A stretch of DNA of 8,949 bases from a virus (taxonomy: Duplodnaviria > Heunggongvirae > Uroviricota > Caudoviricetes), in IMG/VR virus record IMGVR_UViG_2713896828_000008; one strand, 5' to 3'. Every line of letters starts with the position of its first letter. Within the stretch, counting starts at the first letter, position 1. A program made the translations under genes and the position numbers. A model generated the notes under the pieces. It searched no databases. It was given only the letters and a program-made list of their open reading frames with translations, and was not told where the DNA came from. Below are positions 1,071 through 8,949 of this stretch, piece after piece.

Positions 1071-1690
1071 GACTCGAAAGCGTAGCTAAATTTCATTCGC
1101 CAAAAAGCCCGATGATGAGCGACTCACCACGGGCCACGGCTTCTGACTCTCTTTCCGGTACTGATGTGATGGCTGCTATGGGGATGGCGCAATCACAAGC
1201 CGGATTCGGAATGGCTGCATTCTGCGGTAAGCATGAACTCAGCCAGAACGACAAACAAAAGGCTATCAACTATCTGATGCAATTTGCACACAAGGTATCG
1301 GGGAAATACCGTGGTGTGGCAAAGCTCGAAGGAAATACTAAGGCAAAGGTACTGCAAGTGCTCGCAACATTCGCTTATGCGGATTATTGCCGTAGTGCCG
1401 CGACGCCGGGCGCAAGATGCAGAGATTGCCACGGTACAGGCCGTGCGGTTGATATAGCAAAAACAGAGCAGTGGGGGAGAGTTGTTGAGAAAGAGTGCGG
1501 AAGATGCAAAGGTGTCGGCTATTCAAGAATGCCAGCAAGCGCAGCATATCGCGCTGTAACGATTCTAATCCCAAACCTTACTCAACCCACATGGTCACGC
1601 ACTGTTAAGCCGCTGTATGACGCTCTGGTGGTGCAATGCCACAAAGAAGAGTCAATCGCAGACAACATTTTGAATTCGGTCACACGTTAG
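1067..1690 (+). CDS. Q: late-gene antiterminator Q (lambda type), 207 aa
   Basis: Full-length [31 protein letters not shown]... with zinc-binding CRDCHGTG...CGRCKG, essentially the lambda Q protein as recalled. Sits immediately upstream of a PR'-like promoter and the lysis cassette. Confidence 0.93.
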
Positions 1691-1732
1691 CAGCATGATT
1701 GCCACGGATGGCAACATATTAACGGCATGATA

Positions 1733-1761
1733 TTGACTTTTTGAATAAAGTTGGGTAAATT
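1733..1761 (+). promoter_or_regulatory. PR'-like late promoter with overlapping Q-utilisation (qut) region
   Basis: -35 TTGACT at 1733-1738 and -10 TAAATT at 1756-1761 with a 17-nt spacer, followed by TTGACCCAACGATGG, which resembles the lambda PR' initial transcribed region. Position (about 45 nt after the Q stop) matches lambda organisation. Confidence 0.6.
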
Positions 1762-1796
1762 TGACCCAACGATGGATAAATGCACTCGTTAAATAA

Positions 1797-1830
1797 AGCC
1801 CTGAGTTAATAGCTCGGGGCTTTTTGCGTT
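1797..1830 (+). terminator. intrinsic terminator in the late leader (tR'-equivalent)
   Basis: Hairpin 1797-1805 AGCCCTGAG pairing with 1813-1821 CTCGGGGCT (9 bp, one G-U wobble, 7-nt loop) followed by TTTTTGCGTTTT at 1821-1830. Confidence 0.6.
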
Positions 1831-1968
1831 TTAAGCACGGCCTTTCTGAAAGCACATCAAACCAAATACCAGACAGACAAAAATAATCACCTTATCCGCT
1901 GTGGCTACGTTGTGGTGTGCTTTGCATAAAAGAAAACCAGCTCAATGGCTGGCTTCGTGAAAGCGGGT

Positions 1969-2004
1969 GGCAGGAGGTCGCGCTAACAACCTCCTGCCGT
2001 TTTG
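1969..2004 (+). other. stable stem-loop followed by a short U-run upstream of S, terminator-like
   Basis: GGCAGGAGG at 1969-1977 pairs perfectly with CCTCCTGCC at 1990-1998 (9 bp, 12-nt loop), then GTTTTG. Lies in the stretch that resumes lambda-like sequence ahead of S. Confidence 0.35.
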
Positions 2005-2102
2005 CCCGTGCATATCGGTCACGAACAAATCTGATTGCTAAACACAGTAGCCTGGATTTGTTCTATCAGTAATCGACCTTATTCCTAATTAAATAGAGCA
2101 AA

Positions 2103-2132
2103 TCCCCTTATTGGGGGTAAGACATGAAGATG
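2103..2132 (+). promoter_or_regulatory. S translational control region: sdi-type hairpin sequestering the SD plus dual start codons (Met1/Met3)
   Basis: CCCC at 2104-2107, TTATT, GGGGG at 2113-2117 forms a hairpin over the G-rich Shine-Dalgarno. S begins ATG-AAG-ATG (2124 and 2130), the lambda S107/S105 dual-start arrangement. Confidence 0.5.
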
Positions 2133-2447
2133 CCAGAAAAACATGACCTGTTAGCCGCCATTCTCGCGGCAAAGGAACAAGGCATCGGGGCAATCCTTGC
2201 GTTTGCAATGGCGTACCTTCGCGGCAGATATAATGGCGGTGCGTTTACAAAAACAGTAATCGACGCAACGATGTGCGCCATTATCGCCTGGTTCATTCGT
2301 GACCTTCTCGACTTCGCCGGACTAAGTAGCAACCTCGCTTATATAACGAGCGTGTTCATCGGCTACATCGGTACTGACTCGATTGGTTCGCTTATCAAAC
2401 GCTTCGCTGCTAAAAAAGCCGGAGTAGAAGATGGTGGAAATCAATAA
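2124..2447 (+). CDS. S: class I holin S (lambda type), 107 aa with dual start
   Basis: [39 protein letters not shown]... with three hydrophobic segments and a charged C-terminus; near-identical to lambda S as recalled. Confidence 0.95.

Positions 2448-7196: not shown

Positions 7197-8949
<1,753 letters not shown>

Follow-up and report, generated by a model that had tools for sequence, protein, structure and literature searches.

The interval between the late antiterminator gene Q and the holin gene S studied here is a lambdoid late leader of the P22/HK97/HK022 type, which is already known and annotated. It lies in a stretch of 8,949 nucleotides from a tailed-phage IMG/VR record (IMGVR_UViG_2713896828_000008), referred to as the window in the following, and the element that hosts it is very probably a P22-like E. 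coli phage or prophage. In this interval, the late promoter PR' is predicted to deliver a constitutive RNA of about 60 nt that ends at a compact terminator tR', and we have little doubt that this is a standard terminator antiterminated by Q. A first-pass annotation had described the region as a remodelled late leader. The description is correct in comparison to lambda, as the 6S body is gone and 162 bp are found instead. It does not hold in the sense of an unusual arrangement, as the interval is of the P22/HK97/HK022 type.

Late promoter, terminator and the predicted short leader RNA

A lambda-family Q gene lies directly upstream of the leader (lambda type, 'type 1'; 1067-1690 on the plus strand, stop codon TAG at 1688-1690). 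Its 207-aa product shares 204 of 207 residues (98.6%) with lambda Q and 200 of 207 with P22 gp23, and HK544, HK140 and Emek carry the equivalent gene under the annotation Q. Downstream on the same strand, PR' spans 1733-1761 with the -35 element TTGACT (1733-1738), the -10 element TAAATT (1756-1761) and a 17-nt spacer (1739-1755), which is predicted to hold the lambda-type Q-binding part of qut. The arrangement is that of a sigma70 promoter with a putative Q-binding element between -35 and -10. It is the sole promoter-like site found by a consensus scan within 1500-2300, a number that is not above chance (1 match compared to 1.1 expected). We identify PR' because of its identity to the PR' of lambda and P22, not because of its consensus score. 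Two of the 17 spacer bases (1740 and 1750) and position 1766 differ from lambda, in line with the earlier description of PR' and qut as lambda-like. Compared to P22, the spacer is identical and 1766 is the single mismatch. HK544, HK140 and P22 carry PR'/qut annotation at the equivalent site, and the qut annotated in HK544 and HK140 has 1-2 mismatches to its equivalent here.

Transcription is predicted to start at A1768, which corresponds to lambda 44587 and to the nucleotide annotated as RNA 5' nt in P22. The plus-strand positions 1768-1773 (+1 to +6) represent the -10-like pause-inducing element AACGAT, identical to lambda. It is followed by a discriminator-like G-rich element, GGA at 1774-1776, where lambda has GGG and P22 also has GGA. 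Roles and definitions of the pause and of the discriminator-like element are taken from PMC5001585, which places the sigma70-dependent pause of lambda at +16/+17 and describes that a G/C-rich discriminator-like element affects its strength and position. From position-by-position homology to lambda 44587-44603, we expect the sigma70-dependent pause at +16/+17 (C1783/A1784) of the plus strand; the C at +16 is kept relative to lambda. The work of Wells et al. 2016 (PMC4914094) deals with the position of the pause and not with that of the terminator, and we dropped it as evidence on leader length.

The first-pass annotation had also suggested that the shortened leader alters Q-dependent pausing or antitermination. 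We find no positive support for this proposal. Q is nearly identical to lambda Q, and the Q proteins of lambda and P22 are described as very similar and mutually substitutable (PMC8022706). The sole sequence hint of altered pausing is the G-to-A change at +9, which turns the discriminator-like GGG into GGA, together with three further changes up to +17. Because of the analogy with phage 82 mutants (PMC5001585), these changes could modestly affect the strength or position of the pause.

One strong plus-strand intrinsic terminator is detected by the terminator scan in the 433-bp gap between Q and S, downstream of the predicted pause and ahead of the first late gene. This is tR' (1795-1832), a 13-bp stem (1795-1807 with 1811-1823) with the loop 1808-1810, the GC core GCCCTGAG/CTCGGGGC (1798-1805/1813-1820) and the U-tract TTTTTGCGTTTT at 1821-1832. 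With the start at A1768, it confirms the compact terminator about 60 nt into the transcript that had been noted before. The hairpin segment alone folds with -19.1 kcal/mol. The late leader RNA (1768-1832, plus strand), predicted to be constitutive and to end at tR' without Q, would have a length of about 58-65 nt. As a 65-nt RNA it reaches a minimum free energy of -23.3 kcal/mol, compared to -12.2 +/- 2.4 kcal/mol for shuffled sequences (z = -4.6), none of which in 200 is as stable.

The equivalent of tR' is annotated as terminator in P22 and Emek. In the multiple alignment, the P22 leader shows no difference over +1 to +40, and its terminator departs from tR' of the window in the loop only. 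The P22 record BK000583, a third-party inferential annotation, places 'P late or PR'', a qut-like site and 'P late RNA 5' nt' at the equivalent positions. From this annotated 5' nucleotide to the end of the terminator, the P22 leader measures 59 nt. For the terminator, the record states 't late or tR'; antiterminated by gene 23 protein action to allow full late transcription', and it thereby asserts readthrough of P22 tR' by the gene 23 protein.

The terminator hairpins of the window, P22, ES18 and the loci L028, L031 and L032 have folding energies of -17 to -22 kcal/mol. Compensatory changes keep the tR' pairing in ES18, which has a different Q type, and in two enterobacterial prophages, L031 (its Q is 58% identical) and L032. 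Three stem positions are changed on both sides, with the pairs G-C/A-U/G-C in the window, G-C/C-G/A-U in ES18 and A-U/G-C/C-G in L031. In all compared hairpins, the U-G wobble and the G-C stem base are unchanged. Within the roughly 40 window-type loci alone there is no covariation signal, as the leader is nearly invariant and changes affect chiefly the loop. Covariation was rejected as proof of a small RNA (sRNA) function, as the invariance is explained by the module boundary.

The computation here covered the sequence elements and their homology, hairpin folding and conservation, and how the leader types are distributed; for the start site, the pause, termination and Q-dependent readthrough we rely on knowledge of lambda and P22. 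On this basis, RNA polymerase would initiate constitutively at PR' (A1768) and pause at about +16/+17 through rebinding of sigma70 to the -10-like AACGAT (+1 to +6). Without Q, the polymerase would stop at tR' (hairpin 1795-1823 and U-tract) and release the RNA of about 60 nt. Q is expected to bind the qut DNA between -35 and -10 and to load onto the paused polymerase, which would become terminator-resistant and pass tR' into S, R, Rz and the head genes. PMC7547250, citing Roberts et al. 1976, describes short late-promoter RNAs regulated by antitermination for phages 21, phi80, 82 and P22. The short RNA that had been anticipated from this leader fits these published P22-type late RNAs.

Beyond being a by-product of termination, the RNA of about 60 nt from PR' to tR' might act in lysogens as a trans-acting, Hfq-binding regulatory sRNA, in analogy to StxS and lambda 6S RNA. 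StxS is a PR' transcript terminated at tR' that regulates rpoS and stx1 (PMC7547250). Lambda 6S RNA and LPR2, an RNA of about 63 nt, are Hfq-bound (10.1101/2024.10.31.621285). The leader offers a terminator hairpin with U-tail behind an A/U-rich single-stranded stretch, and its near invariance over about 40 loci points in the same direction. This invariance is, however, explained by the position of the leader inside the highly conserved Q-PR'-qut module, and similarity to P22 falls to about 75% right past the terminator loop. In addition, the leader contains little single-stranded sequence for a seed and matches no Rfam family. We regard the sRNA function as unlikely. About 5% of complete E. 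coli genomes carry prophages that would produce the RNA constitutively, as would P22-like Salmonella prophages. If it were a regulatory sRNA like StxS, it would be a very widespread prophage-encoded regulator; what speaks for it at present is its position.

Junctions with lambda and distribution of the leader types

Pairwise alignment with lambda (NC_001416) matches window 1600-1790 to lambda 44419-44609 with 96% identity and window 1953-2200 to lambda 45015-45262 with 99% identity. The segment in between (1791-1952, plus strand, 162 bp) is of the P22/HK97 type and stands in place of lambda 44610-45014 (405 bp). The exact breakpoints are located between 1790 and 1791 (+23 and +24) and between 1952 and 1953. 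These values refine the earlier reading by eye. Divergence from lambda is real, but it had been placed at about 1775, while the homologous stretch reaches 1790 (+23) and includes four scattered mismatches (+9, +11, +15 and +17). The non-lambda segment, estimated at about 110 bp up to about 1940, ends at 1952 and extends 122 bp beyond tR'. Resumption of lambda-like sequence is likewise confirmed, from 1953 and thus 171 bp instead of about 180 bp before S. The lambda leader measures 192-194 nt from the start at 44587 to the end of the U-tract at about 44778-44781, which agrees with the length of about 194 nt given in the first-pass annotation and with a published 6S band of about 194 nt (10.1101/2024.10.31.621285). 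Lambda itself does not have the short-leader architecture. In the multiple alignment, Q stop and holin ATG are 439 bp apart here, compared to 682 bp in lambda. The interval is collinear with that of P22, where this distance is 440 bp.

The 405 bp of lambda that are absent here hold the 6S body, orf-64 and the LPR2 region. We presume from our own reading of the lambda sequence that the LPR2 Northern probe lies just after lambda tR', at about 44810-44845. In a global alignment of 1791-1952 with lambda 44610-45014, homology to the 6S body (44610-44780) or to the LPR2 region was not found beyond scattered matches of 2-13 nt. With this segment missing, this phage does not share whatever function 6S RNA or LPR2 has in lambda.

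The lambda segment shows similarities of its own to other phages. Lambda 44787-44870 (988-1071 of locus L001) is 90-96% identical in the unrelated Klebsiella, Shigella and E. coli phages phi_270, DS8, Kp4882-1 and C1. This stretch lies just past tR' and, by our placement of the probe, presumably includes the LPR2 region. Over 87 bp, lambda 44866-44952 (1067-1153 of L001), a part of the Q-S spacer, shows about 83% identity to DNA that carries a tRNA annotation (Lys or 'OTHER') in rV5-like phages. Other lambdoid phages have tRNA genes at this site, and the lambda stretch may be a remnant of one; ARAGORN calls no tRNA within lambda 43800-45600.

No conserved open reading frame is found in the Q-S interval when its ORFs are compared with P22, in agreement with the first-pass annotation, which saw no ORF there. 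In P22, the frame is shifted by a 1-nt indel in the loop, and neither frame nor length of the ORFs agrees with those here. We consider a 67-aa ORF on the minus strand (1652-1855), a 51-aa ORF on the plus strand (1917-2072; equivalent to a 'hypothetical protein' of HK140) and a 9-codon ORF from an ATG at +12 to be gene over-calls that are not maintained in P22. A scan of the complete window against Rfam 15 (E<=1) gave no match within 1691-2123. The only match elsewhere in the window is a perfect-looking minus-strand hairpin at 7214-7257, which resembles the plant miRNA family MIR399 weakly (23 bits, E 0.15) and falls far short of the gathering score. This is a chance match to a stem-loop, which is possibly a terminator in the head-gene region.

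The complete 601-bp interval 1600-2200 is found by megablast with 95-98.5% identity in HK544, HK140, HK022 and HK97 and likewise in mEp043, mEp213, mEp234, mEpX1, mEpX2, Sf101 and ECP1. Most of it is present in Salmonella phage Emek, where a qut site and a rho-independent terminator are annotated. In two IMG/VR contigs (L048 and L049), Q and both flanks, about 3.2 kb, are identical to the window. The 162-bp segment occurs in 99 phage records, 87 of them with at least 80% coverage, and it is about 75% identical in P22 and relatives. At the same threshold of at least 80%, the 405-bp segment of lambda occurs in 24 phage records, many of which are lambda itself or identical to lambda. Among 5,426 complete E. 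coli genomes, 265 carry the window type (at least 80% of PR', short leader and 162 bp) and 218 the lambda-type counterpart, a count that includes laboratory lysogens. The best 80 IMG/VR loci encoding this Q comprise 35 that are fully window-type, 14 that are fully lambda-type and 31 mosaics. The compact leader of about 60 nt is at least as common as the 194-nt 6S leader of lambda among phages with lambda-type Q, and textbook lambda is not the typical case. Beyond correct annotation, the finding has little import.

In a scan of genome contigs, most matches were lambda Q/PR'/6S DNA with 100% identity, retrieved from assemblies labelled Shewanella, Pseudomonas, Bradyrhizobium, Oceanobacillus, Kitasatospora and others (L008, L010-L022, L027, L030 and L033), in some cases on contigs of about 48.5 kb. 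In these unrelated taxa, it is most likely contamination with lambda control DNA and not prophage sequence.

The mosaic loci divide the 162-bp segment into two separable pieces, 1791-1831 and about 1836-1952. Four IMG/VR loci (L055, L078, L114 and L116) fuse the short leader and terminator (41 bp, equivalent to 1791-1831) to the post-tR' sequence of lambda, with the junction at ...GCGTTT followed by GCACAACAGGT. In L066 and L126, the 5' part of the lambda 6S leader is combined with the window-type piece of about 1836-1952. ES18 has the right arm of the terminator and everything downstream in common with the window, with its own left arm and a GNRA loop. The leader types behave as exchangeable cassettes with junctions past the region required for qut (+23/+24) and just after the terminator. 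The left junction, from recombination or deletion, is located just beyond the elements known to be necessary for loading of Q, which extend through about +17 and are all present here.

A Pseudocitrobacter faecalis contig with a prophage (L032, 371-1240) combines a long lambda-like 6S body with a window-type terminator, which some 270 bp of additional sequence separate from a 3' piece of the P22/window type. From its sequence, this looks like an intermediate architecture, and it is useful for reconstructing the relation of short and long leaders. Beside lambda and L032, the compact leader looks like a long leader minus its internal body, a direction that we infer. Such resemblance could also be read as a recent private deletion, i.e. 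the defect of a decaying prophage without functional late control. The same architecture is, however, present in the plaque-forming phages P22, HK97, HK022, HK544, the mEp phages, Sf101 and Emek as well as in the 265 E. coli genomes counted above. The window has intact qut elements and an intact terminator. Its occurrence in viable phages effectively refutes a private deletion, to which we assign next to no probability. We conclude that the short leader is a regular form of the late control region of these phages.

The Q-S interval had been pointed out as an insertion hotspot, which is borne out by HNH endonuclease genes and other inserts in the interval of related loci. In L069, L075, L087, L105 and L119 (about 2210-2905 in each), an HNH/AP2-like endonuclease insert of about 700 bp is located at +3 of the PR' transcript. 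It splits AACGAT and recreates a -10-like AAGAAT, and lambda 6S sequence resumes behind it. In phage N7, an HNH gene is located in a window-type interval between Q and S.

The region between tR' and S

Downstream of tR', a C-rich and G-poor tract on the plus strand (1840-1899; 18 C, 6 G) could speculatively represent a rut-like backup termination signal. Its excess of C over G is in the top 0.7% of the 60-nt windows of the whole stretch, and the counterpart of P22 is likewise rich in C, although its sequence has diverged. On the minus strand, the terminator scan detects a terminator-like hairpin at 1928-1956, GAAGCCAGC-CATTGA-GCTGGTTTT then CTTTT, with the stem running from 1956 to 1933 and followed by TTTTCTTTT. 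Read on the plus strand, it appears as an A-tract (1928-1936) with CCAGC/GCTGG. It folds with -11.9 kcal/mol (z -2.6; 4 of 200 shuffles are as stable). P22, ES18 and L032 retain its stem and A-tract, with loops that differ; lambda has neither. The hairpin sits exactly at the right-hand lambda-like junction and is without annotation in P22.

The segment 1831-1952 may tentatively be viewed as a second layer of insulation. The rut-like tract would provide a Rho-dependent stop for polymerases leaking past tR', and the minus-strand terminator (1956-1928) would halt antisense transcription from the lysis genes before it reaches PR' and Q. The C-G excess here and in the diverged P22 counterpart, the conservation of minus-strand hairpin and T-run in P22, ES18 and L032, and the transfer of the piece of about 1836-1952 as a unit in the mosaics L066 and L126 are consistent with such a role. 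The compositional signal is nevertheless modest and the minus-strand hairpin is short, with the 4 equally stable shuffles given above. A leftward promoter is neither known nor predicted downstream by the promoter scan. Moreover, lambda and many mosaics do without the 1831-1952 piece, and the curated P22 record annotates nothing there. Both halves of this insulation proposal, the backup stop behind tR' and the barrier to antisense transcription, are possible but doubtful. The combined reading, in which the RNA of about 60 nt is a functional Hfq-dependent trans-acting sRNA and the post-tR' piece with its C-rich tract and minus-strand terminator is a deliberate second insulator, appears quite improbable to us. 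The reading that we favor is the standard late leader with a Q-antiterminated tR'.

The plus-strand region upstream of S (1953-2123) is lambda-like, with 99% identity to lambda 45015-45185. It contains the hairpin GGCAGGAGG/CCTCCTGCC at 1969-1998, then TTTT at 2000-2003, and a CCCC/GGGG hairpin at 2104-2117 just upstream of the S starts, both on the plus strand. P22 and L032 keep both hairpins with compensatory changes and have no T-run after the first. The hairpin with TTTT (1969-2003) is 100% common to lambda (about 45031-45065), and its stem is changed from G-C to A-T in P22 and L032. It may be one of the tandem late terminators reported for lambda (Luk & Szybalski 1983), or else a structure of the mRNA. 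The S holin/antiholin gene follows at 2124-2447 on the plus strand with a dual start (ATG 2124 and ATG 2130); it is taken from the ORF list and from the holin annotation in HK544 and HK140. R and Rz lie behind S.

Comparison with lambda, P22, HK97-type phages and StxS

The window shares with lambda the Q gene, PR', the qut spacer, AACGAT, the sequence up to +23 and the S-proximal 171 bp. The 3' half of the lambda terminator is weakly alignable with tR' of the window. In contrast to the 192-194 nt of the lambda leader, the leader here has about 60 nt and is without the internal 6S body of about 135 nt. P22 is the closer relative in layout, in spacing (439 compared to 440 bp), in the terminator stem and in the leader length of 59-60 nt. 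Past the terminator loop, the window is, however, about 75% identical to P22, and the last 171 bp before the holin as well as the S gene itself are lambda-like (99%) here and not P22-like.

Compared to HK97, HK022, HK544, HK140 and the mEp phages, the interval has point differences only, and PR' and qut are annotated there. These phages are siphoviruses, whereas the window runs into terminase genes that are P22-like/HK620-like. With StxS, the predicted leader RNA would share the genomic position and the origin as a constitutive late-promoter transcript that is ended at tR' in lysogens (PMC7547250). StxS originates from phages with another Q/PR' type and matures by processing of a longer precursor, and its likeness to the leader of the window is one of position only.
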